A stretch of 64,000 bases of DNA from an uncultured Alphaproteobacteria bacterium (GCA_951812805.1 CATOSZ010000001.1:1600017-1664016); one strand, 5' to 3'; positions 46,724 through 64,000 are shown, counted from the stretch's first letter. Notes: a model not told the origin generated them from the letters alone. Translations and numbers: made by a program.

Positions 46724-46895
46724 TGCGCGTTTCGGAAAGTCCCGGACACCGATTACGGAAAGTCCTGGCCAGAGATTTCAGTAAGTCGCGGCCAGTGATT
46801 CCGGAAAGTCCCGGACAGCATCACGGGGCGATCTGAGTTCAGCTTTCGGGTGCGCCGTCTCGGCGTCTACCTCTTGGCTTTTGCCGGGAGGGGAC

Positions 46896-48449: not shown

Positions 48450-48466
48450 CCAGGAGAAGACACCTC

Positions 48467-49243
48467 ATGCTGACACACCCGACCCTCGACCAGATGCAGG
48501 CCCTCGGCTTCAAGGGCATGGCAGAGGCTTACCGCGACATGGCCGAGCGAGGCCAATCATCGGAATTGAACCGCGAGGACTGGCTCGCCCTCATGCTCGA
48601 CCGCGAGGCCGCCACCCGCGCCGACAAGCGCCTCGCCAACCGCCTCAGACAGGCCAGGCTACGCTTCCCCGAGGCCTGCATCGAGGACATCGACTTCGCC
48701 GCCGAACGAGGCCTCGACCGCCGCGCCGTCCTCTCTCTCGCCCAGGGCGTCTGGCTCAAGGCACACGAGAACCTCATCGTCACCGGCCAGACCGGAACCG
48801 GCAAGACATGGCTCGCCTGTGCCATCGCCCATCAGGCCGCCAGGCTCGATCATTCCGTCCTCTACGTCCGCATGCCCAGGCTCTTCGAGGACCTCGCCAT
48901 GGCCCGCCTCGACGGCCGGCTGCCCCGCCTGATCGACCGCCTCGCCCGGGTCCAGCTGCTCGTCCTCGACGACTGGGGAACCCATGGCCTGACCGACCGC
49001 CAGCGCCTCGATCTCCTGGAAATCTGCGAGGAACGATACCACCGACGCTCAACCCTCATCACCGCGCAGATCCCCGTGACCGCCTGGCACGACCTGATCG
49101 GCGAGGCCACCATCGCCGACGCCATCCTCGACCGCGTCATCCACAACGCCCACCGCATCGGCTTGAAAGGCGACAGCATGCGAAAGAAGAAATCGACGAC
49201 CGACTTGACCCAGCCAACCACAACGGAAAACAATCCCGACTGA
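48467..49243 (+). CDS. istB: IS21-family helper ATPase IstB
   Basis: Walker [14 protein letters not shown]. Walker B LLVLDDWG. Confidence 0.9.
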
Positions 49244-49529
49244 CGGCAACAAGGCACCCGAAGCCAAACTCCCGGAACCGGCCGGGACTTTATGAAATCG
49301 GTGGCCAGGACTTACTGAAACCGCCGTCCGGAACTACCGAAATCCGCAGCCCGCCACGGAGGAAGAACTTTTCCCGTTCCTTGAAGGTCCTGGTGTCCCC
49401 GAAGGGGAGCGGTGTCCTGGGCCCGCGCACGCATCGAATCCAGTGTCGCCGCCTCGACGATCGCAGCCAGACGTCCTGCATCCAGAGCGGCGTCGAAAAT
49501 CCCCGCCAAAACTCTGGTGTCCCCAGATT

Positions 49530-51461
49530 TCAGACAGGATTATACCCGGGTATAATCGGGTAGGAGGGGTCCTCTCGGCGCCCCTCCTCCCACACCACCG
49601 GGCATACGTTCTACGTACCACGGCGGTTTCCGGTCAGTTGTAACGCGAGATACCTATCGGTCATAGGGACAAGCCCCTGGCCTTCGAACCAAGCCAGGGT
49701 CATGGCTTCGGTGGCTTGATAGCTGAGGGACTTGCGCCACCAGCCCTTGCCGGAGAGAGCCAAGATCCAGGCCCGCCGCTCGGGCACCCCGAGGCTTCGC
49801 AGGAAGTCCGCTTGCGCCTTGGTGCGCTTGCATTGCTTGAGCCGGACACAGCGCAGTTTTCGACGGATCCAGCCGTCGAGACGCCGAAGCTGGCTCGCGC
49901 AACGGGCATGGCGGAAGTACGTCACCCAGCCGGCGAGGAAGCCGTTGAGTTCGCCGACCATGCGCGCGAGGCTGATGCCCCGGTTGCGCCGGGTGATCTC
50001 GCGAACCCGTTGCTTCGCCCGCCGCAGGCTTTGCGGCGCGATGCCGAGCGATCCATCCGACAACAGCCGGTGGCCGAGGAACTTGCGGTCCCCGGCCGGA
50101 GCGACGGCACTTTTCTCCTGGTTGACCCGCAGATGCAACCTGCCTTGGAGGAATTCGGCGACCGAGGCCATCACCCGCTCGCCCGCCGCTCGAGTGCGAA
50201 CGTAGATGTTCACGTCGTCGGCATAACGGCAGAAGCTATGGCCCCGCGCCTCCAGCATCCGGTCCAGATCGTCCAGTAGAAGATTGGCCAGCAGCGGCGA
50301 CAGCGGGCCGCCTTGCGGCGTGCCCTCATGGCGCCGGATGCAGACGCCGGTCTGCATCATCCCCGCTTGCAGAAAGCGACGGATGGTGCGCAGCAGGCGC
50401 TTGTCGCCAATCCGCCCAGCCAGTCGGGACATCAGAATGTCGTGATTGACCCGGTCGAAGAACGCCTCCAGATCCAGGTCGACCACAATCCCGCGGCCTT
50501 CGGCAACGTACTTACCCGCTTGGGCCAGAGCATCGTGAGCGCTCCGGCCCGGACGGAAGCCGAAACTCGAAGCCGAGAAACCCGGATCGAGGATCGGCTG
50601 AAGGACGTGCAGGATGGCTTGCTGAACCAGACGATCCAGCACCGTCGGGATGCCCAATTGCCGCATCCCGCCTCCCGGCTTGGGGATCGAGACCCCCTTC
50701 ACCGGTTGGGGCCGATAGTCGCCTCGCGACAACGCCGCCACCAGCGCGTCCTTGTGATCGACGAGCCAGAGCCGCAGGTCTTGGATGGTCATCCCATCCA
50801 CGCCCGCCGACCCCTTGTTCGCCTTCACCCGCTTGTAGGCTTGGTTCAGGTTGGCGGAACTCACCACCCGTTCCATCAGGTCTTGCGTCAAGGCTCGTTG
50901 CCGGTCCAACGCCGTGCGCACTTGTGGCACCTCGCAGGCTCCAGTTCCGGTTCCGCCGTCACCAGGGGCCTCGGGGCGCAGCGCCTTCATCAGGGCCTCG
51001 TCGAAAAGGTCCAATTGATAGCCACCGCCTTGCTGCCGCTCCATGCTCATCGAGTTGGTCCAGACTGCTCCTTGCTATTCGGATTCGGCCCTTCGGCGCC
51101 TCGCGGCCCCTACTATGGCCTCGGCTGACTTCTCCACCGCCGTCGCTCCCCGTCGCCGGGTCGCTACTCGGTTCCCCCGAGAGCGCTGGAGATCTCCCTG
51201 GGTAAAACCTTGATCTTTCCGCCGGTCGCGGCCGGATTTACCAATGCGATGTCCGAACGACTATCGGGCATCGCCATCCATTGCTGGCTTACCCCATCGC
51301 ACCGGCCTGATATCCGGTTTCTGTTCGTCCGCTCCGGATTTTGCCTCCGGCTTCCTCCCCACCCCACCTCGCGGCGACGCAGTTGCCTTCAGCTAACGGT
51401 TCCGGTCGTTACGGCCCGTAGAGAACTTCCATCTCCTAGATCAACGCCATGCCAGGCACAC
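49530..51461 (-). mobile_element. Group II intron (class C-like, about 1.9 kb) inserted immediately 3' of a terminator hairpin; 3' boundary approximate
   Basis: The minus-strand 5' end GUGUG at 51461-51457 directly follows the hairpin plus U-run. A 479-aa RT/maturase ORF sits in domain IV. GNRA-capped D5-like hairpin at 49558-49596. 20-bp palindrome at 49538-49557. Confidence 0.6.
49611..51050 (-). CDS. Group II intron-encoded reverse transcriptase/maturase
   Basis: RT domains 0-7 (…AYKRVKANKGSAGVDGMTI…FGFRPGRSAHDAL…YADDVNIYV…) and X/maturase region. 479 aa. Confidence 0.9.
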   Translation of the reverse strand: MSMERQQGGGYQLDLFDEALMKALRPEAPGDGGTGTGACEVPQVRTALDRQRALTQDLMERVVSSANLNQAYKRVKANKGSAGVDGMTIQDLRLWLVDHKDALVAALSRGDYRPQPVKGVSIPKPGGGMRQLGIPTVLDRLVQQAILHVLQPILDPGFSASSFGFRPGRSAHDALAQAGKYVAEGRGIVVDLDLEAFFDRVNHDILMSRLAGRIGDKRLLRTIRRFLQAGMMQTGVCIRRHEGTPQGGPLSPLLANLLLDDLDRMLEARGHSFCRYADDVNIYVRTRAAGERVMASVAEFLQGRLHLRVNQEKSAVAPAGDRKFLGHRLLSDGSLGIAPQSLRRAKQRVREITRRNRGISLARMVGELNGFLAGWVTYFRHARCASQLRRLDGWIRRKLRCVRLKQCKRTKAQADFLRSLGVPERRAWILALSGKGWWRKSLSYQATEAMTLAWFEGQGLVPMTDRYLALQLTGNRRGT

Positions 51462-51488
51462 AAGAAAAGGGGCCGCCGAAGCGGCCCC
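51462..51488 (-). terminator. Rho-independent terminator (GGGGCCGC-UUCG-GCGGCCCC + UUUUCUU) serving as the intron target
   Basis: Perfect 8-bp GC stem with a UUCG loop and a U-run on the minus strand. The intron 5' end abuts it. Confidence 0.55.
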
Positions 51489-51680
51489 TAACGATGTCCT
51501 CGATAACCTCACCATTTCCCGGAACATTGGGCGGATGCTCCCGATGTCCATGATGCCGTCAGCAAGTTCATCCTCCTTCAACCACGAAGTTGGTGGAAGA
51601 TGCGCCCTCGGCGATTCCCTGTCAAGGGCAAATGTGAGGCCGTCGGAGATATCGCCCGGTCCCGCCCCGGTCGATCAACC

Positions 51681-53081
51681 ATGCAACAGCACAACACCTC
51701 CCACACCAGCTCCACCCCCCGTCCCTGGCTCGCCAACGAGAGCCTCAACCCGAGCGGCGGCCGGGAACGCTCCCCGGTCCACAAGCAGGCCGAGAGGGGC
51801 GCGGAGAGCTTTCTCGGCCTGCCCGAGGGCATCAAGCGCTTCGAGATCCTCGCCGTCCTGCGCCGGGTCGGCCTCGAGGACGGCTGGACACGCGGCCTGA
51901 TCAGCCACTACGAGCTGCTGCTCACCTACACCAGGGAGAGCGACTGGGCGCCGGGCGGACGACCCGTCGTCTGGCTCTCGGTGGAGAAGGCGGCCCAACA
52001 GCTCGGTATCTCCCCCCGCCAGGTCCGGCGCAACGAGCGGCGGATGATGGAACTGGGCGCCCTGGCCTTCCGTGATTCTCCCAACCACCGCCGCTTCGGG
52101 CGCCGCGACGGCGAGGGCCGGATCGTCGAGGCCTATGGCCTGGACCTCTCGCCCGCCGCCGCCCTGCTGCCCCGCCTGGCACGGCTGGAACAGACCCTGG
52201 TCCGGAACAGGGCCGAATGGCGCCGGCTCAAGCGGGAGATCGGCACGGCCCGCAAGGGCATCCGCGCCGCCATCGAATGGGCCCTCGAACACCAGCGCGT
52301 GAGCGACGAGATCGCCGAGACGCTCTGGCAGGGATTACAGGGCTTCGCAGAGCGGATCCGCGCCGAAACACCCCTCGATGGCTTGCGTCAACGACTGGCC
52401 GAACTCCGCGCCTTCGACGCCCGTCTGTGGCGTCTGATCGGGGAAGATCGGCCCGTGGACCCGCCCGGGGACAATTCCCCCAACGACGACAATGACTTGC
52501 CGGCCAATATGTCCGCCACGGGGGACCGATATGTCCGCCCTGGCGGACATCCGTGTCCGCCACCATTAGATGACAATACAAACCTAGTTCCTGATCAAGG
52601 AATACCGGTAAGCGGCGGCGAAGCGGCCGCCGGGCCGGCAAGGGACGAAGGGGGCGCGGCGGTGGCGGCTCACCGGCACCCGCCGGGGCGCGGCGGAGAG
52701 GAAGGGGGCCGGCACGGGGATGTGCCCCGGCCCCGGGTGTCGTGGGACAACCTGCTGGCGATCCTGCCGCCGGGCCTGCGCCATCGGCTGCCGCTCGATG
52801 AACATCCCTCCTGGTCCTCGTTGATCGACGCGGCGGGCGAGCACGCCGCCGAACTCGGCATCTCGCCCCATGCCTGGGGGGAGGCCTGCCGGGCAATGGG
52901 CCGGGAGGGGGCGGCGATGGCGGTGATCGTCGTCGCCGCCAAGCACCACCGGGGCGAGGTGCGCCGCCCCGGCGGCTACTTGCGCGCACTGACGGCGCGG
53001 GCCGGGACGGGGGAGCTGCATCTCGCCCGCTCCGTGTACGGCCTGCTCAACACAACCACGGGAAAGGAACAGAACCGATGA
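51681..53081 (+). CDS. repC: Replication initiator protein, RepC-like (HTH)
   Basis: …WLSVEKAAQQLGISPRQVRRNERRMMELGALAFRDSPNHRRFGRRDGEGRIVEAYGLDLSPAAALLPRL… matches the RepC family core. Followed by parA-parB with ATGA overlap. Confidence 0.7.
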   Translation: MQQHNTSHTSSTPRPWLANESLNPSGGRERSPVHKQAERGAESFLGLPEGIKRFEILAVLRRVGLEDGWTRGLISHYELLLTYTRESDWAPGGRPVVWLSVEKAAQQLGISPRQVRRNERRMMELGALAFRDSPNHRRFGRRDGEGRIVEAYGLDLSPAAALLPRLARLEQTLVRNRAEWRRLKREIGTARKGIRAAIEWALEHQRVSDEIAETLWQGLQGFAERIRAETPLDGLRQRLAELRAFDARLWRLIGEDRPVDPPGDNSPNDDNDLPANMSATGDRYVRPGGHPCPPPLDDNTNLVPDQGIPVSGGEAAAGPARDEGGAAVAAHRHPPGRGGEEGGRHGDVPRPRVSWDNLLAILPPGLRHRLPLDEHPSWSSLIDAAGEHAAELGISPHAWGEACRAMGREGAAMAVIVVAAKHHRGEVRRPGGYLRALTARAGTGELHLARSVYGLLNTTTGKEQNR

Positions 53082-53803
53082 CGAAGACCCACAACATTCA
53101 CCCCTTCCCGCGCCCCCTGGCGCGGAATACACAACCCCCGGGCGGACTTCGCCGGTTGGCGGTGCTCTCGCGCAAGGGCGGGGCGGGCAAGACGACGCTG
53201 GCGGTCAATCTGGCGGTGGCGGCGCAAGCGCGCGGTCTCCCCTCGGCGGTGCTGGACGTGGACCCGCAGGCCTCGGCCAGCGCCTGGGCGGAGGTCCGTG
53301 GCGCCACATCGCCGGTGGTCCGGCATTGCCCGGCGCGTCATGTCGAGCGTGTGCTGGGCGAGGCGGCCGAGGACGGCATCGCCCTGGCGCTGATCGACAC
53401 GGCGCCGCACGCGGAGGGGGCGGCGTTGACGGCGGCGCGGGCGGCCGATCTGGTGGTCATTCCCTGCCGCCCGGCGTTGTTCGATCTCTGCGCGGTCACC
53501 GACAGCCTGGACATGGCCCGGCTGGCAAATGTTCCGGCGGTGGCGGTGGTGAACGCGGCGCCGGCGCGGGGCCGGTTGGCGGCGGAGACGGCGGCGGCGC
53601 TGGCGAACCTGGGCCTGGACGCGGTGGCGCCGCCTCTCGGACAGCGCGCCGCCTTCGTGCATGCCCTGACGGCGGGCCAAGGCGTGGTGGAGTACGCGCC
53701 CCGTGGCAAGGCGGCGGGGGAGGTTCTGGCGCTGCTGGATCGATTGTTGGCCCATCCCGCCGTGCGGGCGACGGCGAAGAACAACGAAGGGAGGCTGGCA
53801 TGA
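53078..53803 (+). CDS. parA: ParA-family partition ATPase
   Basis: Deviant Walker A KGGAGKTT. 241 aa. Confidence 0.9.
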   Translation: MTKTHNIHPFPRPLARNTQPPGGLRRLAVLSRKGGAGKTTLAVNLAVAAQARGLPSAVLDVDPQASASAWAEVRGATSPVVRHCPARHVERVLGEAAEDGIALALIDTAPHAEGAALTAARAADLVVIPCRPALFDLCAVTDSLDMARLANVPAVAVVNAAPARGRLAAETAAALANLGLDAVAPPLGQRAAFVHALTAGQGVVEYAPRGKAAGEVLALLDRLLAHPAVRATAKNNEGRLA

Positions 53804-54759
53804 CGAAACAACGGAACTTGGCGGAAGCGTTCCGCTCGCTATCGCCGGAAGCAAGGACGGGCAATGGGGAAGGCCAAGCCGAACAGAGCGAACTGGAAAC
53901 GGCGCGTCCCCGGCGGACGCTGTCGGTGGCGCTGGCGGCGATCCGGGTCGAGGACCGCTTGCGGCTGGGTCTCGATGAAGCGAAGATCGAGACCATTGCC
54001 GCCTCGATGCGGGACATCGGCCTGCAATCGCCGGTGCTGCTGCGCCCCTGGCGGGAGGCGGATACGACGCGTCCCCATGCCTGGGGGGCGTCCGACGCGG
54101 GGGTGTTCGCCCTGGTGGCGGGCGCGCACCGGTTGGCGGCGGCGCGGGTGTTGGGCTGGACGGAGATCGAGGCGATGATCGTGGACGGCACGCCGGACGA
54201 AGTGCGTTTGATGGAGATCGACGAGAACCTGGCCCGGGCCGAGTTGACGGCGCTGGACCGGGCGCGGTTCCTGGCGGCGCGCAAGGCGGTGTACGAGCGG
54301 CTGTTTCCCGAAGCATGCAATGGGGGAGACCGCAAGAGCATTGAATTCGCGGAGAAAAATCGGATGGAAAACATTTCCATCCGATCCTTCGCCGACGATG
54401 CGAGCGCGAAGATGGGGCTGACGTCGCGCGCGGTTCGCCGCGCGGTGGCGATCGGCGAAGGCATCGACGACGAGGCCGCCGAAGCGCTTGCCGGGACGGC
54501 ATTGGCGGACCGGGAGGGGGATCTGCACCGCCTGTCGAAACTGTCGCGCGCGCGCCAGCGCGTGGTGGCGGGAGTTTGCGCGTCGATGCCGGGGTCGGCG
54601 ACGCTGGACAAGGCCTTGTCGGCGATCGACGGCAAGGCGGCGAGCGGCAGGGCGAGGTCATCGGAGGCGGCGCAGCTGGAGGCGCTACGCCGGGCCTGGC
54701 GGAAGGCGTGTCCCGAAGCCCGGCGGCGGTTCCGGGATGAGGTGTGCCGGGAGGCGTGA
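53800..54759 (+). CDS. parB: ParB-family partition protein
   Basis: ParB/Srx N-terminal domain plus HTH (…LQSPVLLRPW…, …GLTSRAVRRAVAIGE…). ATG 53800 after GAAGGGAGG. ATGA overlap with parA. Confidence 0.8.
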   Translation: MTKQRNLAEAFRSLSPEARTGNGEGQAEQSELETARPRRTLSVALAAIRVEDRLRLGLDEAKIETIAASMRDIGLQSPVLLRPWREADTTRPHAWGASDAGVFALVAGAHRLAAARVLGWTEIEAMIVDGTPDEVRLMEIDENLARAELTALDRARFLAARKAVYERLFPEACNGGDRKSIEFAEKNRMENISIRSFADDASAKMGLTSRAVRRAVAIGEGIDDEAAEALAGTALADREGDLHRLSKLSRARQRVVAGVCASMPGSATLDKALSAIDGKAASGRARSSEAAQLEALRRAWRKACPEARRRFRDEVCREA

Positions 54760-54764
54760 AGCAA

Positions 54765-54796
54765 GGGGGAGGAACGAATCTCTCCGTTCCTCCCCC
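54765..54796. terminator. Bidirectional terminator hairpin between convergent parB and recombinase genes
   Basis: gggggaggaacg aatctctc cgttcctccccc (perfect 12-bp stem). Confidence 0.5.
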
Positions 54797-54841
54797 TTCC
54801 GTGCCGCTGTTCATGCTGGTTTGCGATTTCCGGTTGGCCGT

Positions 54842-56422
54842 CTACGCGGCGGCAATGGCCAGGTCGACCAATCCGTCCGTGCGGGGGGTGACGGTGAGGT
54901 TCATGTCGTAACGATTGTCCGGATCGGGCGCGGCGACGATGCGTTCGATCAACGTGGAGAGGGTCATCAGCGCGTCATGCCGCTTGACCGGCGCGCGCGC
55001 GTTGGCGATGGCGGCGGCGAGCGTGTCGAGTTTATCCAGCAACCGTGCCGTCAGCACGTCGGGATCGACGGTGGGCGGGCTGGCGAGCGCGGCGTATTCG
55101 TATTTCAGCCGGGCCTCGGTGTTTTCCAGTGTCAATAGCTGGCGGTGCAAGCTCTGGGCCGCGGTGCCCTCCTGGATGGCCGAGACGATATTGGCGATGT
55201 GGCGCTGGTTGGCGGCCATGTGTTCGGCCATGGCCTCGCGGGCGGCCTGCCTGGCGGCGGCGGCTTCGGCCAGCAGGGCGGGCCAATCCTGCTGCCGCGA
55301 GAGTTGCCGGTGCAGGCTCTCCATGGCGTGCCGTTCCACGACATCGACGGCGATGCGCCGGTTCATCTCGCAGGTGCCGCTCTGGCGGCGATTGGTGCAG
55401 CCGTAGCGCCCCTTGTTGATGACGCTCATGGAGCCGCCGCAGACGGCGCAGTGGAGGAGAGGGCTGAGCGGCAGGGGGACGCGGGTGGCGTGGGCCTGGC
55501 GGCGGTCGTAGCCCTTGAGGCGGCGGGTTTGGACGGCGTCCCAGAGCGCGTCGTCGACGATGCGCAGGTTGGGGACGTCGGTCACGATCCATTCGGCGGG
55601 CGGATTATCGCGGGCGACGTGTTTGCCGGTGTCGGGGTTTCGTTTCTTGCGGGTGCGATTGAAGACGATCCGGCCGCGATAGAGTTCGTTGTTGAGGATG
55701 CCGGTGCCGCGCCGGGGCCGGCCGTTGATGGTGTAGGCGGTCCAGAGGCCCTTGCGAGGTCCGGGAATGCCATCGGCGTTGAGCAGCGCGGCGATGTTGC
55801 GCGGACTGGCGCCGTCGGCATAGAGGCGAAAGATACGGCGGACGACCTTGGCCTGTTCGCGGTTCACGGTGCGCAGGCCACGCGTGAGCTTGCCGTCGGG
55901 GCCTACTCTGTTGGCGACGTTGTATCCGTAGCTGAGCCCGCCGCCGGCGCGGCCCTCGCGGACACGGCCCATCTGGCCGCGCCGGGTCTTGCTGGCGAGG
56001 GCGACGAGTTGGCCCTGGTTCATGACGCCCTTGAAGGCGATGTGAATGGGCTGGACTTCGCCTTCCTCGATGGTGACGAGGTCGAGATCGTGAAAGACGA
56101 GGCGGTCGTAGATGCCGGAGGTGTCGGTCTGTATACGGCTGATCCGGTCGAGGGCCTCGGTGTAGATGGCGTCGAAGAGGCCGGCCTTGGCGTCCTGGAG
56201 CATTTGCGCGAGGCCGGGACGTTCGTGGAGGGTCTGGCCGGTCGAGGTTGAATCTGTATAGATGCCGGCGACGGTGCCGCCACGTGCGCGGATGCGTTCC
56301 TCGCAGAGGGCGATCTGGTCCGGGATGGAGCGCGGGTCCTGGAGGTGGGAAGAGTAGCGGGCATAGATGGCGTAACGCTGTGTCGTGCGGGCAAGCGCAG
56401 TCGGCATGATGGCATGGTTCAT
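54842..56422 (-). CDS. Large serine recombinase (resolvase/invertase catalytic domain + recombinase + zinc-ribbon domains)
   Basis: …YAIYARYSSHLQD…GGTVAGIYTD… catalytic Ser region. Recombinase domain and CxxC…C zinc ribbon (CAVCGGSM…GRYGCTNRRQSGTC). ATG 56422 after GGAGAC. Confidence 0.85.
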   Translation of the reverse strand: MNHAIMPTALARTTQRYAIYARYSSHLQDPRSIPDQIALCEERIRARGGTVAGIYTDSTSTGQTLHERPGLAQMLQDAKAGLFDAIYTEALDRISRIQTDTSGIYDRLVFHDLDLVTIEEGEVQPIHIAFKGVMNQGQLVALASKTRRGQMGRVREGRAGGGLSYGYNVANRVGPDGKLTRGLRTVNREQAKVVRRIFRLYADGASPRNIAALLNADGIPGPRKGLWTAYTINGRPRRGTGILNNELYRGRIVFNRTRKKRNPDTGKHVARDNPPAEWIVTDVPNLRIVDDALWDAVQTRRLKGYDRRQAHATRVPLPLSPLLHCAVCGGSMSVINKGRYGCTNRRQSGTCEMNRRIAVDVVERHAMESLHRQLSRQQDWPALLAEAAAARQAAREAMAEHMAANQRHIANIVSAIQEGTAAQSLHRQLLTLENTEARLKYEYAALASPPTVDPDVLTARLLDKLDTLAAAIANARAPVKRHDALMTLSTLIERIVAAPDPDNRYDMNLTVTPRTDGLVDLAIAAA

Positions 56423-56461
56423 GGCGTTCGGTCTCCGTAAGACGATGAAAAGCGCCCGCCG

Positions 56462-56700
56462 CTGGTCTCCAGGCGGCCCTCCAGCCTCGCTCGGGCTCCC
56501 CTCCGATGCGCGGTGCCGGCTGCGGGTTGTATCGCGGCACGAGCGAGCTGAAACGTCGTATCGAAGACGGCGACGAAACACCCATACATTAGCGATACCC
56601 GTATTGACTGCTGGTCCCTTGGAGTCATATGCTGGCGGCCTCTTCACGGGGCCTCTTTCTACACGCTAGGAGCCCTGAAGTGATGTTGATCTCTCGAAAG
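56462..56700. repeat. Copy A of an about 240-bp duplicated divergent promoter/5'-UTR segment (copy B at 60885-61190)
   Basis: Near-identical sequence (…ggtctccaggcggccctccagcctcgctcggg…cgacgaaacacccatacattagcgatacccgtattgactg…) upstream of both SLP genes and of both divergent minus-strand genes. Confidence 0.6.
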
Positions 56701-57951
56701 CCCCAGTGGGGAGTGCCAGCCGCGGCCATGGCTGCGGCGCTGCTTGTCGCCGGATGCGGCAGCAGCACCACAGGCACTACGTCCGATGCGGCGACGCCAT
56801 CGAAGCCGGTTGCGCCGACCGAGCAGGAAAAGGCTGACGCCGCGAAACCGGTTGCGCCGAACGAGCAGGAAAAGGCTGACGCCGCGAAACCGGTTGCGCC
56901 GAACGAGCAGGAAAAGGCTGACGCCGCGAAACCGGTTGCGCCGAACGAGCAGGAAAAGGCTGACGCCGCGAAACCGGTTGCGCCGAACGAGCAGGAAAAA
57001 GCTGACGCCACGGCAGTATTGAGTAGCGACAGTTTTGTTAGTATTAGTAGCCCTCCTGCCAATCAACTGATCGCTGCGGCCACGGCAGCTGATGATGTCA
57101 CGAAGAAGGTAGCTGAGGAAATTGCGAGTGCAGCAGCCGCTACTCCTTCACTCGGCAGTGTTCACCAATCAACGGCTGCTCCCGATGCGCGTAGGAAGAA
57201 GATTGGCGTGTTGTCGTCCCGGCACTACAAGAACAATGTAGTGTTTTATGCCAAAGACGGTAATGGAAACTTTTTCCACGATTCAATAACTGACGGCACC
57301 GTCGTGAACGCTCCTATCGATGGATGGAATGGTGTTGAGTGGAAAAATAAGGATGATACCGGCACACTTCGTGTCAGGGGTTATGGAACAGAGCGCGGCG
57401 TCATGCCTCTTTTTGCCCTCGGTTATTGGCTCCATGTTCCAGACGATGCCACGAGTGCCGATTCCTATGAGGTTGGGGTCTTCGCCCTCGGCGGCGGCGG
57501 TGGTTTCAATACGGGACATCTCTCGGGCCTCACCGGCACTGCCACATACGAAGGCGATGCGGTCGGTCTGTATGCCAAGAGAGCCGCAGTCGAAGACACC
57601 CCTGACATCAAGGAGTTCACTGCCGATGTCGCTCTGACGGCGGATTTCGGCGCTAACACCGAACTCGGTAGCGTGAGCGGGACGGTATCCAACTTCAATG
57701 TCGGCGGCATGGAGAAAGCGCTGAAGTTGAGCCTCGGAAGCGCAACTATCACTGGCACCCGATACGGAGGCTTCTTCAAGGGAGGAGACACCAGCGCCGC
57801 TGGCGGGTTCTCGGGCAAGTGGGCAGGCGCGTTCTACGGCGACGGACAAGCCACCACCGACAAGCCAGCCAGCATCGTCGGGACCTTCGGCGCTGCGAAG
57901 AGTGATAAGTTGGAGAGCTTCATTGGGGCCTTCGGCCCCAAGAAGCAGTAG
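56683..57951 (+). CDS. Surface lipoprotein (SLP) with TbpB/fHbp-like C-terminal 8-strand barrel (copy 1)
   Basis: Lipobox LLVAGC. 5× in-frame 13-aa repeats (KPVAPNEQEKADAA). C-terminal domain …ATYEGDAVGLY…FTADVALTADF…LGSATITGTRYGGFFKGG…GAFYGD…IVGTFGAAKSDKLESFIGAFGPKKQ, characteristic of Slam-dependent lipoproteins. RBS AGGAG. Confidence 0.75.
   Translation: MLISRKPQWGVPAAAMAAALLVAGCGSSTTGTTSDAATPSKPVAPTEQEKADAAKPVAPNEQEKADAAKPVAPNEQEKADAAKPVAPNEQEKADAAKPVAPNEQEKADATAVLSSDSFVSISSPPANQLIAAATAADDVTKKVAEEIASAAAATPSLGSVHQSTAAPDARRKKIGVLSSRHYKNNVVFYAKDGNGNFFHDSITDGTVVNAPIDGWNGVEWKNKDDTGTLRVRGYGTERGVMPLFALGYWLHVPDDATSADSYEVGVFALGGGGGFNTGHLSGLTGTATYEGDAVGLYAKRAAVEDTPDIKEFTADVALTADFGANTELGSVSGTVSNFNVGGMEKALKLSLGSATITGTRYGGFFKGGDTSAAGGFSGKWAGAFYGDGQATTDKPASIVGTFGAAKSDKLESFIGAFGPKKQ
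56806..57000 (+). repeat. 5× tandem 39-bp in-frame repeat within SLP1
   Basis: aaaccggttgcgccgaacgagcaggaaaaggctgacgccgcg repeated head-to-tail. Confidence 0.85.
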
Positions 57952-57975
57952 CTCCGGGCGGGCTTGACTTCAAAC

Positions 57976-58029
57976 GGGCGGGGTCCGGAGAGAAACGCTC
58001 CGAGCCCCGCCCGGCTTTTTTCCGTTTTT
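57976..58029 (+). terminator. Rho-independent terminator after SLP1 (identical arrangement after SLP2 at 63437-63490)
   Basis: gggcggggtccggag agaaacg ctccgagccccgccc followed by ggcTTTTTTccgTTTTT. Confidence 0.6.
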
Positions 58030-58041
58030 AGTTTTCCATGT

Positions 58042-58102
58042 GGGCTTCTCCGAGGCGAGCGAGGCCGCTCCGGCGGAGGCCCCGCTCGCCTCGGAGAAGC
58101 CC
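58042..58102 (+). promoter_or_regulatory. 20-bp perfect inverted repeat overlapping the putative SD of Slam (also at 63503-63565)
   Basis: gggcttctccgaggcgagcg [21 nt] cgctcgcctcggagaagccc ends 5 nt before the ATG. The GGAGAAG SD candidate lies in the 3' arm. Confidence 0.5.
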
Positions 58103-58107
58103 ATCTC

Positions 58108-58760
58108 ATGCATCCGTTATCGATATTCCGTGCGCTGGCGTTGGGAACGGCGCTGGCATGTGCCGTACCAGCCTGGGCAAGACCGGATTCGACGCCACCC
58201 CGCGCCGATGCGGCCGAGGCCCAGGAACTTGTCCGCGATGGCCGGTTCGAGGACGCGCTGGAGCGTCTCCGCCCCCTGGCCGAAGGGGGCACGGTGGATG
58301 CGGCGGCGATGTTCCAGTTGGGCCTCGCGGCGGTGGGCGCGGCGCAAGAAGCGGATTTGGCGGAGGCGAAGCGCGAGGCGCTGCTGGCCGAGGCGATCGC
58401 GGCCTTCCGGTCGCTTCTGGTGCGTCGGCCGGGCCTGGTGCGGGTACGCCTGGAGCTGGCCCGTGCCTTCTTCTTGAAGGGCGAGGACGATCTTGCGAAG
58501 GCGCATTTCGAGCGCGTGCTGGCGGGCAAGCCACCGGCGGCGGTGATTCACAACGTCAACCGCCTTCTGGCGGAGATCCGCGCACGTAAGCGCTGGAGCC
58601 TCAATCTCGGCTTCGCGCTCGCGCCGGACAGCAACGTTTCGGCGGCGTCGGACAATCGGACGATCTGGATCGACACGGCCTACGGTCGTCTGCCGTTTAC
58701 CTACGAGACGGCGCCGAAGTCGGGTATCGGCGTCTCGGTGTGGGCCGGGGGTGAGTACCA
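58108..58760 (+). pseudogene. Slam-like (DUF560) surface-lipoprotein translocator, copy 1: N-terminal TPR + start of barrel, truncated by an IS1182-family fragment
   Basis: Signal peptide MHPLSIFRALALGTALACAVPAWA. TPR-like region. …KRWSLNLGFALAPDSNVSAASDNRTIWIDTAYGRLPFTYETAPKSGIGVSVWAGGEYQY, then IS-derived sequence from about 58757. Confidence 0.6.
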
Positions 58761-59340
58761 GTATCCGCGACGGACCCGGACTCGCGCATCATGCCGGTGG
58801 CCGGCGGCGGCTTCGAGCAGTGCTACAACGCCCAGGCTGCGGTGGCCGCCGGCAGCCTGCTGGTGGTCAGCGCCGACGTGGTGCAGGCGGCGAACGACAA
58901 GCAGCAGATCGAACCGACGCTCGAAGCACTCGCCGGCCTGCCGGACGGGCTTGGCGAGGTCGAGACCCTGTTGGCGGACAGCGGCTACTTCAGCCAGGCC
59001 AACGTCGAGGCCTGCGGGGAAGCGGAGATCGCGCCGCTGATCGCGCTCGGCCGGGAGCACCACCATCTTTCCTGGCGGGACCGCTTCGCCGAGGCGCCGC
59101 CAGCGCCCGAGGATCCGACGCCGCTCGAGGCGATGTGCCATCGCCTGGCCACACCCGAGGGCCGGGCGCTCTACGCGCTTCGCAAGCAGACGCCGGAGCC
59201 GGTGTTCGGCATCATCAAATCGGTGATGGGCTTGCGTCAGTTCAGCCTGCGCGGCCTCGACAAGGCGAAGGGGGAATGGACCTTGGCCACGCTCTCCTGG
59301 AACATCAAGCGGATGTTCGTCCTCAGCCACGCCTGAACGG
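58757..59340 (+). mobile_element. IS1182/IS5-superfamily transposase fragment (C-terminal about 190 aa only)
   Basis: …TDPDSRIMPVAGGGFEQCYNAQAAV…ADSGYFSQANVEAC…EPVFGIIKSVMGLRQFSLRGLDKAKGEWTLATLSWNIKRM… There is no N-terminal half upstream. Confidence 0.6.
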
Positions 59341-60001
59341 GCGGGCCAACCCGCGTTCGCAACTTCATGGGGGTAAATCCATGACATCGACGCCCGCCAA
59401 GCCAATTTTACCAATCCTTGCATGCCCGAGTCCGACAGGCTGCTAGGCCCACTCGTTGGCCCTCCTCTGACCTCGCACGAAGACATCGAGCGGATGCTGG
59501 ACAGATCAGTAGGCGCTCGGGCGGAGAATGATGATGAAATCCCACCCGAGGCCGCCGCCGAGATCATGCGCGAATACCAGGACGATCATTATCGACGAGC
59601 GCTAGGCGATCCCTTGCCCATGCTTGACGGGAAGACGCCGCGACGCCGTCCTCCAACCCCTGATAACATGTCGGGGCAGGCCAAAAACCTGCATGGGGAT
59701 CTCCTTCAAGCTGTTGGTCTCGCAACTCACAGCTTCGGAGATCCCCGCCTCTGCCGCCAGAGGCGCGTCTCACATCTATCTGAACCTAGTCACCTCGCCC
59801 GGCGAAGCAAGACGCGAAAAGCGCTCCCACACCACGCGACGGGACACGACGTGCTGCCCGCCGCACCCGGGCTATGGGCCGGTCACGGTCCCAGAGCTGG
59901 GTAGTTTCTGCAAGGTACAGGCCGTCCTCCAGCCCCATGCCGATACCCCGGCTGATCTCCTGTTTCTGGCGGTGCGTTGGTTTCTCGCGGAACCACGGTG
60001 C

Positions 60002-60841
60002 TCAATCGCGCCGGCGAAGTCGACCCGCCCCGGCGACGGTCTCGGCGAGGCTCCGGCCCGGCTGTAGGGTGTATCCGGTCTTCTGTTCCAGGGCCGCGTA
60101 GCGGCGGTAGAGCGCGGGCCGGGCGCGGGCGGCGATGGTTAGATCGGCTTTACTGGCGAAGAGGCAAAAGCTGCACGACAGGCGTGAGGCGCCGAGATCG
60201 TAGGCTTCGTGCCGGCGCTGCCCGGAGGCCTGGATGGTTCGCCACACCTGATCCAGGGTCATGTCGCGGATAGGCAGGAAGTCGTATACCGTGCGTTTGG
60301 CGGTGGAGAGGCGTTTGTTCAGCGCCCAAGCGTCCCGGGCCGCGCGGCTGTGGGATTCTTCGGCGCGCAGACCGAGGCAATTCATGACCAGGGGCGCGCC
60401 GAGGCCGCGGATGAACTTTTCTACTGGGGCGCGCTTTAGATCCGAAGTGCGGAACCTCTGATTCGCCGAAGGGAAGGGTGAGGCGTCCCGCCCGTCGGCG
60501 CGCAACTTGCGGCGGCGGCAACGGACCATGTCGAGCAGGTGTTTTTCCGAGCCGTCGCGCCAGACGGCTTTCACCACGTTGAGCTCATGGGCGATATTGG
60601 CCCGAATGTGGTCCTGGACGCCGGGCCATTCCACCTCGCCGAGATCGGCGTGCACGACGATGATCCGCTCGTGGGGCACGAGGGAGGAGACGACGGCGTA
60701 CATGGCCTGGCTATCCTTGCCACCTGAATGGTTGAGGACGAAGACGGCGCCGGCGGCAAGGCTCTCGTGGCGTGACGGCCCTATCGGTAAACGCGGCCCA
60801 ATCGCATGGGGATGTGAGGAGGGCGTGGTGGCGTGGCTCAT
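60002..60841 (-). CDS. PP-loop ATPase, PAPS-reductase/DndC-like family protein
   Basis: PP-loop VLNHSGGKDSQAMYAV. ATG 60841 is preceded by GGAGAC and the shared promoter repeat. Confidence 0.75.
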   Translation of the reverse strand: MSHATTPSSHPHAIGPRLPIGPSRHESLAAGAVFVLNHSGGKDSQAMYAVVSSLVPHERIIVVHADLGEVEWPGVQDHIRANIAHELNVVKAVWRDGSEKHLLDMVRCRRRKLRADGRDASPFPSANQRFRTSDLKRAPVEKFIRGLGAPLVMNCLGLRAEESHSRAARDAWALNKRLSTAKRTVYDFLPIRDMTLDQVWRTIQASGQRRHEAYDLGASRLSCSFCLFASKADLTIAARARPALYRRYAALEQKTGYTLQPGRSLAETVAGAGRLRRRD

Positions 60842-61062
60842 GGTGGATTGTCTCCGAGACTGATGTTGAGAGAGGCGAGCCCGCTGCGGTCTCCAGGCGG
60901 CCCTCCAGCCTCGCTCGGGTTCCCCTCCGATGCGCGGTGCCGGCTGCGGGTTGCAGCGCGGCACGAGCGGGCTGAAACGTCGTTTCGAAGACGGCGACGA
61001 AACACCCATACATTAGCGATACCCGTATTGACTGATGGTCCCTTGGAGCCATATGCTAGCGG

Positions 61063-61140
61063 CCTCTTCACGGGGCCTCTTCACGGGGCCTCTTCACGGG
61101 GCCTCTTCACGGGGCCTCTTCACGGGGCCTCTTCACGGGG
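61063..61140 (+). repeat. 13-bp tandem repeat (cctcttcacgggg) ×5+ in the SLP2 promoter/5' region; single copy at the equivalent position of SLP1 (56646-56660)
   Basis: ggcctcttcacgggg cctcttcacgggg cctcttcacgggg cctcttcacgggg cctcttcacgggg cctcttg…. Confidence 0.85.
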
Positions 61141-61168
61141 CCTCTTGCTAAACGCTAGGAGCCCTGAA

Positions 61169-63421
61169 GTGAAGTTGATCTCTCGAAAGCCCCAGTGGGG
61201 ACTGCCCGCCACCGCGATGGCTGCGGCGTTACTCGTCGCCGGATGCGGCGGTGGAAGTAATAAGAACGATTCGGCGGCGGCGGAGCCCCCGCCGGTGGCA
61301 TCGACCGAGCAGGAGCGGTTTGATGCGCGTGATGCGGTGAGGGCAGCCGAGAGTGCCCGGGCGGCTGCGGAGCGGGATGTTGCGGATAACGCGGTGTCTG
61401 AGATCGCGGCAGTATTGAATGCCGTCGAAGGTGAAGTGGCGAGGGCCAATGAGGCCGTTGACGCGGCCAGACTCGCAGGCACGGATGATGCCAGAGCTTC
61501 GGAGGCTGCCGACAGCGCTGCGTCTGAAGTAGAGATGGTGAACCAGGCGATGCAAGAAGTAGAAGCGGCGAGGCTTGCGCTGGACCAGGCGACTGCCGAT
61601 TACGAACAGGCCACGAGGGATGCGGACATTGAGACGCAGGCAGGCGCGACGGTCATCCAGACGGCGGCAAACACTCTGAAGGACGCAGCCGAGAACGCGA
61701 GTATGGCAGCGGCGACGGCCATGGAAAATGCCAACGTTGCCCTTGACGAGGCCATGTCATTCGCCCAGATGGCGGCTGACGCTGCGGAGCCGGTGGCATC
61801 GACCGAGCAGGAGCGGTTTGATGCGCGTGATGCGCGGAGTCTTGCTGAGGACGCACGTGCGGAAGCGCTGCAGATAGTTACCGACGACGCGGCATCTCGC
61901 TCAGAAAGATACGCGGACGTCGCTTCTGAAGCGCAAGAAAGGGCTAGGGCCGCTCGCACAGATGCTAGGACGGCTTCGGAGCAGAGTGAGAGGGCGTCCG
62001 AGCAAGCGGAGATCGTGAGGTCCGCAAGGGCTGCCCTGGATGAGGCTATTGCCGAGTACGAAAGGGCAACGCAGGATGCGGACATTGAAACGCAGCAAGG
62101 CGCGAGGGCCATCACGGATGCTGCGAACAACTTGAGGGACGCTGCCGACACGGCAAGGACGAGTGTCGAAGCGGCCATCGTCTCCGCCGAGACTTTTGCC
62201 GAGGAGGCAACCGCCGCTGCGGGTACGCATGTGCTTGAGCTGTTCAGGACGGCGAATGCATACGGCGAAGAGGCCGCAGAGCAAGATGCTTTCATCGAGG
62301 CGGCCGGTGAAGCGATTGTGGGGGCAGCCAATGCTAATAACGCCGACACCGTTTCGGTCACCCCTATCTGGAACAATGTGCCGGTCAACGGCGATACGCC
62401 AGCCGACGTGGATTTGAAATTCCAAGTTGATGACATCGAAGTAGACAGCGACAACGTGAGGGTCATCGACCCGCTCGGCGACTTCGAGCATGGGCGTGAG
62501 ATGGAGGTGGAAAATGGGTTCAAGCTAATCGTCTTCACGGACAAAAAGCAGGCCGATGCTCCAAGAGAAGGAGTAACAGCAATAGAAGCCAAGGAATTCA
62601 ATACCGCCTCGGTCCGTCTCGGCAAAGTCCAAGGCGACAGGAGCGATCCTGCTAACGTCACCTTCTACGACGAGGAGGATTTAGTTGGTGGGGCATCGAG
62701 GGATTTTCCAGATGCCGCGTACGCGTATTCTGGAGGCTTGACATGCCCAGATGCCACAGTTTGCTCCATCGAAACGGACGGCACTGTCGTGGGCTACGTG
62801 TTCACGGGGAAACGAGAGGCCGTAGCTGCTGTTTCAGCAAGAACTGGGAGGGAGCAAAACGACGACTACCTCTCGTTCGGCATCTGGTTGAAGGGGGATA
62901 ACGTCAGTAATCTTGCCTTCGGTGCTTTCGAGGACGGTGGCGATCCGATTGGGACAACAGATGGCTTAACGGGGATCACGGGCAACGCGACCTACAGTGG
63001 TTCGGCTGCTGGTGCCCATCACAAGACCGGCGAAGGCGTGAACTGGTTCGATGGCAAAGCGAGCCTGACTGCCAAGTTCGGGGATGCTTCGAGTCGGGGT
63101 ACCGTCGAAGGTGATATTAGCGAGATCAGAGTGGGTGGTGGCGCAGCACTGGAGGACAAGATTCGCCTGCAAACGACTCCTATTGGGGTCAGTGATACTG
63201 TTGCGGCCGGTGTGGCTGTGATGGGTTCGATCCTGGATGCGAATTCGAACGTACAGCACAAGTTCGAGGGCACGTGGAACGCGACTTTCTACGGGCCGGA
63301 TACGAACGATGAGGAAGAGAACATCGCCCCCAAGGCGATTGGCGGCACTTTTGGCGTCAGTGATACCACCGATGAGATTACCGAGAGCTTCATTGGTGCC
63401 TTCGGCGCCAAGAAGCAGTAG
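61169..63421 (+). CDS. Surface lipoprotein (SLP) copy 2: conserved signal/lipobox and C-terminal TbpB-like barrel, divergent Ala/Glu/Asp-rich repeat-containing middle
   Basis: GTG start (the ATG of copy 1 is AAG here). Lipobox LLVAGC. Two about 170-aa internal repeats (VASTEQERFDARDA…ATxDADIETQxGA…). C-terminus …NATFYGPD…IGGTFGVSDTTDEITESFIGAFGAKKQ. Confidence 0.75.
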   Translation: MKLISRKPQWGLPATAMAAALLVAGCGGGSNKNDSAAAEPPPVASTEQERFDARDAVRAAESARAAAERDVADNAVSEIAAVLNAVEGEVARANEAVDAARLAGTDDARASEAADSAASEVEMVNQAMQEVEAARLALDQATADYEQATRDADIETQAGATVIQTAANTLKDAAENASMAAATAMENANVALDEAMSFAQMAADAAEPVASTEQERFDARDARSLAEDARAEALQIVTDDAASRSERYADVASEAQERARAARTDARTASEQSERASEQAEIVRSARAALDEAIAEYERATQDADIETQQGARAITDAANNLRDAADTARTSVEAAIVSAETFAEEATAAAGTHVLELFRTANAYGEEAAEQDAFIEAAGEAIVGAANANNADTVSVTPIWNNVPVNGDTPADVDLKFQVDDIEVDSDNVRVIDPLGDFEHGREMEVENGFKLIVFTDKKQADAPREGVTAIEAKEFNTASVRLGKVQGDRSDPANVTFYDEEDLVGGASRDFPDAAYAYSGGLTCPDATVCSIETDGTVVGYVFTGKREAVAAVSARTGREQNDDYLSFGIWLKGDNVSNLAFGAFEDGGDPIGTTDGLTGITGNATYSGSAAGAHHKTGEGVNWFDGKASLTAKFGDASSRGTVEGDISEIRVGGGAALEDKIRLQTTPIGVSDTVAAGVAVMGSILDANSNVQHKFEGTWNATFYGPDTNDEEENIAPKAIGGTFGVSDTTDEITESFIGAFGAKKQ

Positions 63422-63576
63422 GTCCTGGCGGGCTTGACTTTAAACGGGCGGGGTCCGGAGAGAAGCACTCCGAGCCCCGCCCGGCTTTTTTCCGTTTTGT
63501 TTTTCCATGTGGGCTTCTCCGAGGCGAGCGGGGCCGCTCCGGTGGAGGCCCCGCTCGCCTCGGAGAAGCCCATCTC

Positions 63577-64000
63577 ATGTATCCGTTATCGATATTCCGT
63601 GCGTTGGCGTTGGGAACGGCGCTGGCATGTGCCGTACCAGCCTGGGCAGCGCCGGATCCGGCACGGCCCAGCGCCGATGTGGCCGAGGCCCAGGAACTTG
63701 TCCGCGATGGCCGGTTCGAGGACGCCCTGAAGCGTCTCCGCCCCCTGGCCGAAGGGGGCACGGTGGATGCGGCGGCGATGTTCCAGTTGGGCCTCGCGGC
63801 GGTGGGCGCGGCGCAAGAAGCGGATTTGGCGGAGGCGAAGCGCGAGGCGCTGCTGGCCGAGGCGATCGCGGCCTTCCGGTCGCTTCTGGTGCGTCGGCCG
63901 GGCCTGGTGCGGGTACGCCTGGAGCTGGCCCGTGCCTTCTTCTTGAAGGGCGAGGACGATCTTGCGAAGGCGCATTTCGAGCGCGTGCTGGCAGGCAAGC
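63577..64000 (+). CDS. Slam-like (DUF560) translocator copy 2, 3' end cut by the window edge
   Basis: MYPLSIFRALALGTALACAVPAWA… is more than 90% identical to copy 1 over the available 141 codons and is not interrupted within the window. Confidence 0.7.
   Translation, partial: MYPLSIFRALALGTALACAVPAWAAPDPARPSADVAEAQELVRDGRFEDALKRLRPLAEGGTVDAAAMFQLGLAAVGAAQEADLAEAKREALLAEAIAAFRSLLVRRPGLVRVRLELARAFFLKGEDDLAKAHFERVLAGK

Follow-up and report, generated by a model that had tools for sequence, protein, structure and literature searches.

In a 64,000-nt stretch of DNA from an uncultured Alphaproteobacteria bacterium (GCA_951812805.1, CATOSZ010000001.1:1600017-1664016; "the window" below means this whole stretch), two operons, each encoding a lipoprotein (SLP1 or SLP2) and a Slam-type protein (Slam1 or Slam2), begin with leaders that carry different numbers of a 13-nt tandem unit, GGCCTCTTCACGG. 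We found arrays of the same unit in the same position in other genomes, ahead of genes for surface or secreted proteins, and the unit is complementary to the ribosome-binding sites that follow it. Our preferred reading is that the array is a variable-number anti-Shine-Dalgarno repeat in the mRNA leader, which tunes or switches the expression of surface proteins. We consider this reading fairly probable, though well short of certain.

The 13-nt array in the window

The front ends of the two operons lie in a direct repeat (copies A and B; Table 1), and their only difference in length, 65 bp, amounts to five extra 13-nt units in copy B. The SLP2 leader thus has a perfect tandem repeat between its promoter-like site and its ribosome-binding site, as is sought in a contingency locus. 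Elsewhere in the window the unit was not found, with 3 mismatches allowed. As RNA, the unit reads GGCCUCUUCACGG, part of which (CCUCUUCAC) resembles the anti-Shine-Dalgarno sequence at the end of 16S rRNA.

In both SLP genes, codons 6-10 (GCCCCAGUGGGGA, also written GCCCCAGTGGGGA; 56698-56712 and 61184-61198) form a further partial inverted copy of the unit, and they pair with the first unit in the predicted fold of the SLP1 leader. No such early-coding copy was noticed at other array loci, where no systematic check was made.

Table 1. Positions of the array-bearing operons, their repeated ends and the adjoining genes, in window coordinates
Feature	Position	Strand	Basis or remark
Large serine recombinase, 526 aa	54842-56422	-	Start ATG 56422; Resolvase, Recombinase and Zn_ribbon_recom domains
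Front-end repeat, copy A	56403-56760	.	Repeat search, alignment, self-BLAST
Promoter-like site TTGACT-18-TATGCT, SLP1	56604-56633	+	Consensus match only
13-nt array GGCCTCTTCACGG, 1.6 units, SLP1 leader	56637-56657	+	Tandem-repeat search
SLP1 ribosome-binding site AGGAG + CCCTGAA + GTG start	56668-56682	+	Partly complementary to unit
SLP1, lipobox LVAGC, predicted TbpB-like C-terminal barrel	56680-57951	+	Barrel from sequence; public annotation start ATG 56683
Back-end repeat, copy A: end of SLP1, intergenic hairpin, start of Slam1	57913-58768	.	Repeat search, BLAST
Slam1, first 220 codons only, pseudogene	58108-58768	+	Cut off by IS1182-type fragment
IS1182-family DDE transposase fragment	58791-59336	+	Domain search, BLAST
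PAPS-reductase/PP-loop family gene	60002-60841	-	Domain search; neighbour, not part of mechanism
Front-end repeat, copy B	60822-61249	.	Content as copy A, +65 bp; adjoins PP-loop gene
Promoter-like site TTGACT-18-TATGCT (identical), SLP2	61028-61057	+	Consensus match
13-nt array GGCCTCTTCACGG, 6.6 perfect units (100% identity), SLP2 leader	61061-61146	+	Tandem-repeat search
SLP2 ribosome-binding site AGGAG + CCCTGAA + GTG start	61157-61171	+	Predicted pairing with last unit
SLP2, 750-aa lipoprotein	61169-63421	+	Translation, alignment; signal peptide and last 12 residues as in SLP1
Back-end repeat, copy B	63383-64000	.	Leaves window; extends to about 64238 in same-sample contigs (L062/L063)
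Slam2, 5' part	63577-64000	+	Full gene 454 aa in L062, TPR and SlipAM domains

A family of arrays ahead of surface-protein genes

We searched for the array family with an exact 21-mer (1.6 units), using one genome per species. The 21-mer was found at 57 stretches in 15 genomes, all of them metagenome-assembled and most of them labelled Alphaproteobacteria, with up to 11 loci per genome. It also occurs in four metagenome contigs, two of which come from the sponge Sarcotragus foetidus (PMC5099237); viral contigs were searched for the array as well, and none was found. Among 62 arrays of the unit, the number of perfect units ranges widely, from 1.6 to 35, with no obvious preferred value. A literature search returned the 13-nt unit only in an unrelated paper on dendritic cells in cancer immunology, and no description of the array family; the family is previously undescribed, as is a leader array for Slam operons.

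The layout around the arrays is constant, the order being a promoter-like site, the array, a ribosome-binding site and then a lipoprotein, an autotransporter or another secreted protein. A motif of the form TTGnnn-N16-19-TAnnnT ends 13-19 nt upstream of 50 of 61 arrays, often with ATTTT before it and a TG extension, and the window has this geometry too if its first full unit is taken to stand for the partial unit of the family, CTTCACGG. Downstream, an open reading frame (ORF) in the same orientation follows 59 of the 62 arrays, the remaining three being cut by contig ends. Its start lies 0-34 nt from the array, or 72-85 nt in one group of 11 leaders with short arrays (about 1-2 units). Among the 59 products, 40 have a lipobox and others end like autotransporters; the Pfam matches are Autotransporter (6), TbpB_B_D (5), FHBP_C (2) and YadA (1). 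SLP-Slam pairs like those of the window follow seven arrays, and in other genomes a single promoter-leader cassette precedes non-homologous genes. The promoter 22-mer of the window, CATTAGCGATACCCGTATTGAC, had no match when scanned against metagenomes; the promoter cassette of the window's own type is not widespread.

Two groups of loci deserve separate mention. In genome OZ241752.1 (loci L008, L012, L032, L037, L040 and L045), the arrays have 1.6-2.6 units and the leader is about 80 nt longer, with an extra inverted unit (AGAGGCC) and a hairpin, GAGGCCTCGTAAGAGGTCTC; these leaders look like a non-expanded, more elaborate version. In the Sarcotragus foetidus metagenome (LXNI01; L058 and L060), the arrays lie at the extreme ends of short-read contigs. 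Assemblies therefore break at the arrays, and the family is probably under-counted in short-read data. For annotation, the arrays explain short-read assembly breaks at these genes; long ORFs reading through the arrays are spurious.

Complementarity between the unit and the ribosome-binding site

The ribosome-binding regions that follow the arrays have the form GGAGG-YCC-YGT, which is an imperfect inverted copy of ACGGGGCCUCU. The mean energy of the duplex between unit and ribosome-binding region is -18.9 kcal/mol, versus -14.4 kcal/mol for the controls, 183 further genes of this DNA that have a Shine-Dalgarno motif (p = 9e-15). For the 45 distinct ribosome-binding regions, the mean is -19.2 kcal/mol, versus -11.7 +/- 1.8 kcal/mol with shuffled units, and none of 300 shuffles reached -19.2. 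When the CCUCU core was kept and only its flanks were shuffled, the value was -14.7 +/- 2.1 kcal/mol, and 6 of 300 shuffles reached that of the real unit. The motif RGGYCC adjoins the 5' side of the start codon in 36 of 57 array genes versus 11 of 183 controls.

In nearly all contexts that were folded, the last unit and the ribosome-binding site form a predicted hairpin. Adjacent units are also predicted to pair, with about -15 kcal/mol for every two units, and the SLP2 leader folds better than shuffled versions (z = -2.8). Equilibrium folding also gave a dependence on unit number in SLP1-type and L042-type contexts, in which the ribosome-binding site was unpaired at 0.4 with an odd number of full units and at 0.05 with an even number. 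Such a dependence was seen in some contexts only, so a general odd/even switch was dropped as a conclusion and kept as a hypothesis.

Differences in unit number between paralogues

Only three pairs of paralogues have flanks that align end to end (96-97% identity), and all three differ in unit number: 1.6 versus 6.6 in the window, 9.6 versus 6.6, and 32 versus 35. The arrays are perfect up to 35 units though the flanks of these paralogues have diverged by 3-4%. This combination of perfect arrays and differing unit numbers has the look of slippage-prone repeats.

Proposed mechanism

Starting from the observed anatomy of the leaders, the family-wide layout, the complementarity and the differences in copy number between near-identical paralogues, we infer that the array is transcribed, that it affects expression and that slippage is frequent enough to change it. 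The two front ends are the common start of paralogous SLP-Slam operons, and the array, at the very start of the leader, would be the functional element. A sigma-70-like promoter, recognized by its promoter-like motifs, would drive the leader, and the array would be transcribed within the 5' leader. In the mRNA, the last unit or units would pair with the ribosome-binding site and hold translation down, and neighbouring units would pair together. Slippage would add or remove units, which would alter the folding of the leader and probably its stability. The number of units may thus act on output through competing pairings, stability or processing, and the result would be heritable yet reversible differences in the amount of each surface protein.

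It is important to consider several observations that weigh against this reading. In the window, only 3 nt separate the -10 element from the array, so the first unit may be untranscribed, and the start site is a guess from consensus. The window's own ribosome-binding regions are among the weaker pairers of the family (-16.3 kcal/mol), and folding of the entire SLP1 leader shows no gain over shuffled versions (z = +0.4). In the SLP2, L002, L010 and L001 contexts, equilibrium folding leaves the ribosome-binding site masked whatever the number of units. Many array loci are paralogues, and the statistical tests therefore overstate independence. We also compared the window's contig with two alternate contigs (atg000079l and atg002227l) of the source assembly (ENA ERZ18545485); the three are identical over 51720-64000, including the unit numbers of both arrays, and rapid variation within the population was not seen among them. 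Finally, the unit is identical at 13 of 13 positions across lineages in which the SLP and Slam proteins are only about 31-56% identical.

Pairing in cis alone does not need such identity, which hints at a trans-acting reader. The 13-nt unit might then be a shared "address" for a trans-acting protein or small RNA (sRNA) in addition to its pairing in cis, such that dozens of surface-protein genes in each genome form one regulon in which the output of each gene is set, reversibly, by the length of its own array, possibly by whether its number of units is odd or even. We offer this extension tentatively, as a possibility that we would not bet on. If it is correct, uncultured and partly sponge-associated Alphaproteobacteria have a genome-wide, repeat-coded variation of their surface, and the SLP operons of the window are two differently set members of it.

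The duplicated SLP-Slam operon

The two front ends had first drawn attention as a divergent-promoter segment that is duplicated in direct orientation and near-identical even in the 5' leaders of the minus-strand genes. Both copies are indeed where the original prediction placed them, and their similarity is far beyond chance (E = 6e-89, self-blastn), but their extent had to be corrected to that in Table 1. The core, 56464-56657 versus 60888-61081, is 96% identical over 194 nt according to the repeat search; past an indel, the match resumes at 56637-56760 versus 61126-61249 (124 nt, 91%), and the overall identity is about 88-96%. In copy A, this strong tier (56464-56760) opens with the upstream region and the promoter-like site; leader, ribosome-binding site and signal peptide follow, as far as the Cys of the lipobox. 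The right end of the repeat is thus not intergenic: for both lipoproteins, it takes in AGGAG, the GTG start and the whole of the signal peptide.

To the left of the core, identity drops sharply to about 67%, with indels, over 56403-56463 versus 60822-60887. Both minus-strand genes have their ribosome-binding site, GGAGAC as predicted, and their first 20 nt (ATGAaCCAtGCCAtCAtGCC versus ATGAgCCAcGCCAcCAcGCC) within this weaker tier. The two tiers suggest an older duplication that reached into the start of the minus-strand gene and a later homogenization from 56464 rightwards. The repeat makes up nearly the entire upstream region of the recombinase and PP-loop genes, and whatever promoter these genes use is therefore common to both. 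However, the only promoter-like site that matches the consensus faces the SLP genes, and a relaxed scan of the repeat for minus-strand promoters found none with at least 8 of 12 consensus matches, so that the description as a divergent promoter is not supported. The spurious N-terminal extensions said to be shared by the minus-strand genes do exist, as the ORFs at 55605-56585 and 60002-61009. The feature in which the copies differ most, the 13-nt array, had been overlooked. A search of 56300-61400 against Rfam 15 (E <= 1) gave no relevant match, its sole match being a spurious microRNA on the intergenic hairpin described below.

The back ends of the operons are also repeated, over a greater length and with 95.7% identity; this repeat takes in the last 13 codons of SLP and, beyond a hairpin whose arms have 26 bp, codons 1-220 of Slam. 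On sequence comparison, the entire SLP-Slam operon occurs twice, with common front and back ends and divergent SLP bodies. SLP1 and SLP2 have 422 and 750 aa, and they are 69% identical over the first 52 aa but 31% over the C-terminal 190 aa, with the last 12 residues identical. Since such different SLP bodies lie between conserved ends, we attribute these ends to recent gene conversion or to replacement of a cassette rather than to a recombinase site. As a duplication, the pair is ordinary: paralogous operons with conserved ends.

The hairpin between the SLP stop and the Slam start is present in both operons (58041-58103 and 63510-63572), with 26-nt arms and an 11-nt loop; its arms are 96% complementary in copy A and 100% in copy B. 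It may be an attenuator or a stabilizer that sets the ratio of SLP to Slam.

Alternative explanations

The mosaic structure of the operons raises the possibility that the conserved ends are kept alike by their use as homology arms, through which RecA-dependent events would swap, delete or amplify SLP bodies (antigenic variation by cassette exchange), with the array of secondary importance. The flanks have about 91-96% DNA identity and the SLP bodies 31% protein identity, the repeats at both ends are long enough for homologous recombination, and the occurrence elsewhere of a single promoter-leader cassette before non-homologous genes can be read in the same way. As had been predicted, the front-end repeats bracket SLP1, the truncated Slam1 and the IS fragment, and also the PP-loop gene, and would thus be a physical substrate for homologous deletion or amplification; the 856-bp back-end repeat would be a better one. 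However, there are no recombinant forms among the three haplotigs, and the conserved parts are those under functional constraint, namely the promoter, the leader, the signal peptide, the extreme C-terminus of SLP (conserved in the family) and Slam. Cassette exchange also leaves the array family, its fixed position and its complementarity to the ribosome-binding site unexplained. We therefore consider it unlikely as the primary explanation, but it is compatible with a leader repeat and does not exclude one. A different use of direct repeats, the programmed rearrangement that the original prediction raised, would have the serine recombinase excise, invert or amplify the SLP1 module by acting on the copies themselves or on sites inside them. 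In its favour, copy A lies right against the recombinase gene and includes the first codons of that gene. Moreover, contig atg000079l, which is 100% identical to the window from 64000 leftwards, stops at 56470, 6 bp short of the left edge of copy A's core; a structural or assembly-graph branch, or simply a coverage break, could cause this end. Serine recombinases act at short specific sites, though, and direct repeats of 300-850 bp are not known to be substrates of large serine recombinases. No att-like sites were found in or around the copies, and a search for recognition sites in the form of short inverted repeats yielded only ones at chance level. None of the 57 related arrays examined has a recombinase homologue nearby, the two plasmid-borne homologues whose neighbourhoods were read adjoin toxin-antitoxin genes without SLP or Slam, and the bracketed cargo (a broken Slam, an IS fragment and an unrelated plasmid gene) does not look designed. 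With the same arrangement in all three same-sample contigs, we did not retain this proposal, which now appears extremely improbable.

The remaining alternatives concern the array itself. It could act as DNA, either as a row of binding sites for a regulator or through the GGGG runs that recur every 13 nt on the non-template strand, which might form a G-quadruplex or an R-loop that blocks transcription or stimulates recombination. A G-quadruplex upstream of pilE in Neisseria is an example of such action at the DNA level. The regular GGGG tracts, the position of the arrays just downstream of a promoter-like site and the identity of the unit across distant lineages, which suits a trans-acting reader, are all consistent with this idea. 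That the arrays keep strictly to one orientation with respect to the gene, and that the unit specifically complements the ribosome-binding region, nevertheless points to RNA, a period of 13 bp does not hold sites on one face of the helix, and loops of 9 nt would make weak quadruplexes with which GC hairpins should compete. We consider action as DNA quite improbable. More improbable still is that the arrays are selfish or neutral satellites that spread along with the promoter cassette without influencing regulation, in which case the duplicated segment would just be a decaying tandem duplication. A wide range of unit numbers without a preferred value and the identity of the three haplotigs would fit satellites; they would not account for position and orientation that are invariant at all 59 scorable arrays, for the restriction to genes of surface or secreted proteins, for the perfect conservation of the unit across 15 species or for the co-adaptation of the downstream ribosome-binding regions to the unit.

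Two further roles for the array were rejected. It is not a switch of reading frame from an upstream ATG (in copy A, an ATG at 56629 is in frame with SLP1), because this ATG is inside the -10 element and is not conserved in the array family, and because directly behind the array every gene has a ribosome-binding site of its own and an N-terminal signal peptide. Plasmid iterons were rejected given that the same kind of array precedes genes at dozens of chromosomal loci.

Relation to known systems

Contingency loci, i.e., simple-sequence repeats such as the poly-G tract of hpuA (which encodes a Slam-dependent lipoprotein) in Neisseria, are known from host-adapted bacteria. The 13-nt arrays resemble them as perfect tandem repeats at surface-protein genes that differ in unit number between near-identical copies. 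However, contingency loci have units of 1-7 nt in coding regions or promoter spacers, whereas here a long conserved unit lies in the leader, and changes in its number leave the reading frame and promoter spacing unaltered.

The closest known case is that of hmw1A and hmw2A in H. influenzae, where the transcribed 5' leader includes an (ATCTTTC)n repeat whose pairing partner is a G-rich region further downstream (PMC12721329; PMC8262952). The leader is processed by RNase III, and adhesin levels vary inversely with repeat length (PMC12721329). In both systems, a pyrimidine-rich tandem repeat of variable copy number lies between the promoter (here a promoter-like site) and the start codon of a surface-protein gene and is followed by a G-rich complementary region. 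They differ in that the unit has 13 nt here rather than 7, that the ribosome-binding site itself would be the partner, and that the unit occurs at up to 11 or more loci per genome, with unrelated protein families, in 15 species. In that last respect, the arrays are more like the dispersed direct repeats of TAACTGA that precede start codons in Beggiatoaceae, cyanobacteria and Bacteroidetes; these reach 43 copies, and a post-transcriptional role has been proposed for them (PMC4679880). In both, a single short unit forms tandem repeats shortly before many genes, throughout a genome and in several lineages. However, the TAACTGA genes have no functional theme and no complementarity to the ribosome-binding site has been reported for them, whereas the genes behind 13-nt arrays nearly all encode surface or secreted proteins.

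Control by pairing of the ribosome-binding site, as we propose for the array, is also found in ROSE and fourU thermometers and in the leader of tlpB in H. pylori, where the sRNA RepG targets a variable G-repeat whose length grades the effect (PMC8295292). Unlike in these systems, the masking sequence would be the tandem repeat itself, in cis. As for the genes, the window resembles known Slam/SLP pairs (PMC5449769) in that a lipobox lipoprotein with a predicted TbpB-like barrel adjoins a TPR and DUF560/SlipAM protein, and it differs from them in its uncultured, partly sponge-associated hosts and in its duplicated operon with one broken Slam.

Switching of surface proteins by repeats has been well studied in a few human pathogens, in which each gene has its own short repeat. 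If the arrays do control expression, animal symbionts beyond pathogens would vary their whole surface in a similar way, and the leader would be a compact, portable module consisting of a promoter, n units and a masked ribosome-binding site, with output possibly set by n.

Genes of the operons and their surroundings

Both SLPs carry a lipobox (...AAALLVAGC-G), as in the lipoproteins that adjoin Slam genes, and neither had a direct match in Pfam or NCBIfam. A profile built from 19 SLP C-terminal domains, including those of both window proteins, matched TbpB (5kkx; E = 1.9e-5) and, far less strongly, HpuA (E = 0.07) and fHbp (E = 0.08), and a TbpB-like C-terminal barrel is accordingly predicted for the SLPs. 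TbpB, HpuA and fHbp are the classical substrates of Slam (PMC5449769). Full-length Slam2 is available from a contig of the same sample (L062, 1414-2778), which is identical to the window where they overlap, and it matches SlipAM (E = 8e-30) and TPR_Slam (E = 5.5e-6). Slam2 is thus a predicted Slam-type outer-membrane protein, with N-terminal TPR and a C-terminal DUF560/SlipAM barrel, and Slam-dependent surface display is predicted for the SLPs. Slam1 is a pseudogene because it is cut by the IS fragment.

Each SLP gene also has internal repeats. In SLP1, an in-frame 42-bp tandem repeat (56793-57009; 5.1 copies, 97% identity) encodes KPVAPNEQEKADAA and forms the linker right after the lipidated Cys; it is a second, coding repeat of variable length in this gene. 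In SLP2, 61291-61399 and 61568-61722 recur at 61789-61897 and 62024-62178, respectively, i.e., with a period of about 456-498 bp, at 71-76% identity and with a perfect core of 46 nt. This suggests that the long N-terminal part of SLP2 grew by domain duplication.

The recombinase and PP-loop genes look like plasmid-backbone neighbours that abut the copies by chance. The recombinase gene directly follows repC, parA and parB, and its relatives, at 37-41% identity, are on alphaproteobacterial plasmids and chromids; the two annotated relatives whose neighbourhoods were read (H14 and H16) lie in plasmid maintenance regions and adjoin toxin-antitoxin genes and neither SLP nor Slam. The PP-loop protein belongs to a family common on plasmids, and no homologue of it was found near the 57 related array loci. 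In both proteins the conserved domain begins only after residue 10-30, and the few first codons that the genes share therefore stem from duplicated DNA and not from the protein families. A megablast search of 54800-64000 against a plasmid database matched the IS1182 fragment and nothing else, so the region has no close relative there.

The variation among the haplotigs involves mobile elements and not the SLP module. Contig atg002227l (L066) departs from the window to the left of 50005 and carries two tandem genes for group II intron reverse transcriptases (L066, 15308-18653). An IS21-type element at 46799-49348 has a second, inverted copy beyond Slam2 (L063, 198-2747) that is 99.96% identical. 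All 38 differences between the window and atg002227l fall in a 260-bp patch at 51460-51719, which covers the start of repC and the sequence immediately before it; the remaining 12.3 kb are identical. This patch looks like a replaced tract and is possibly a determinant of replication control or incompatibility.

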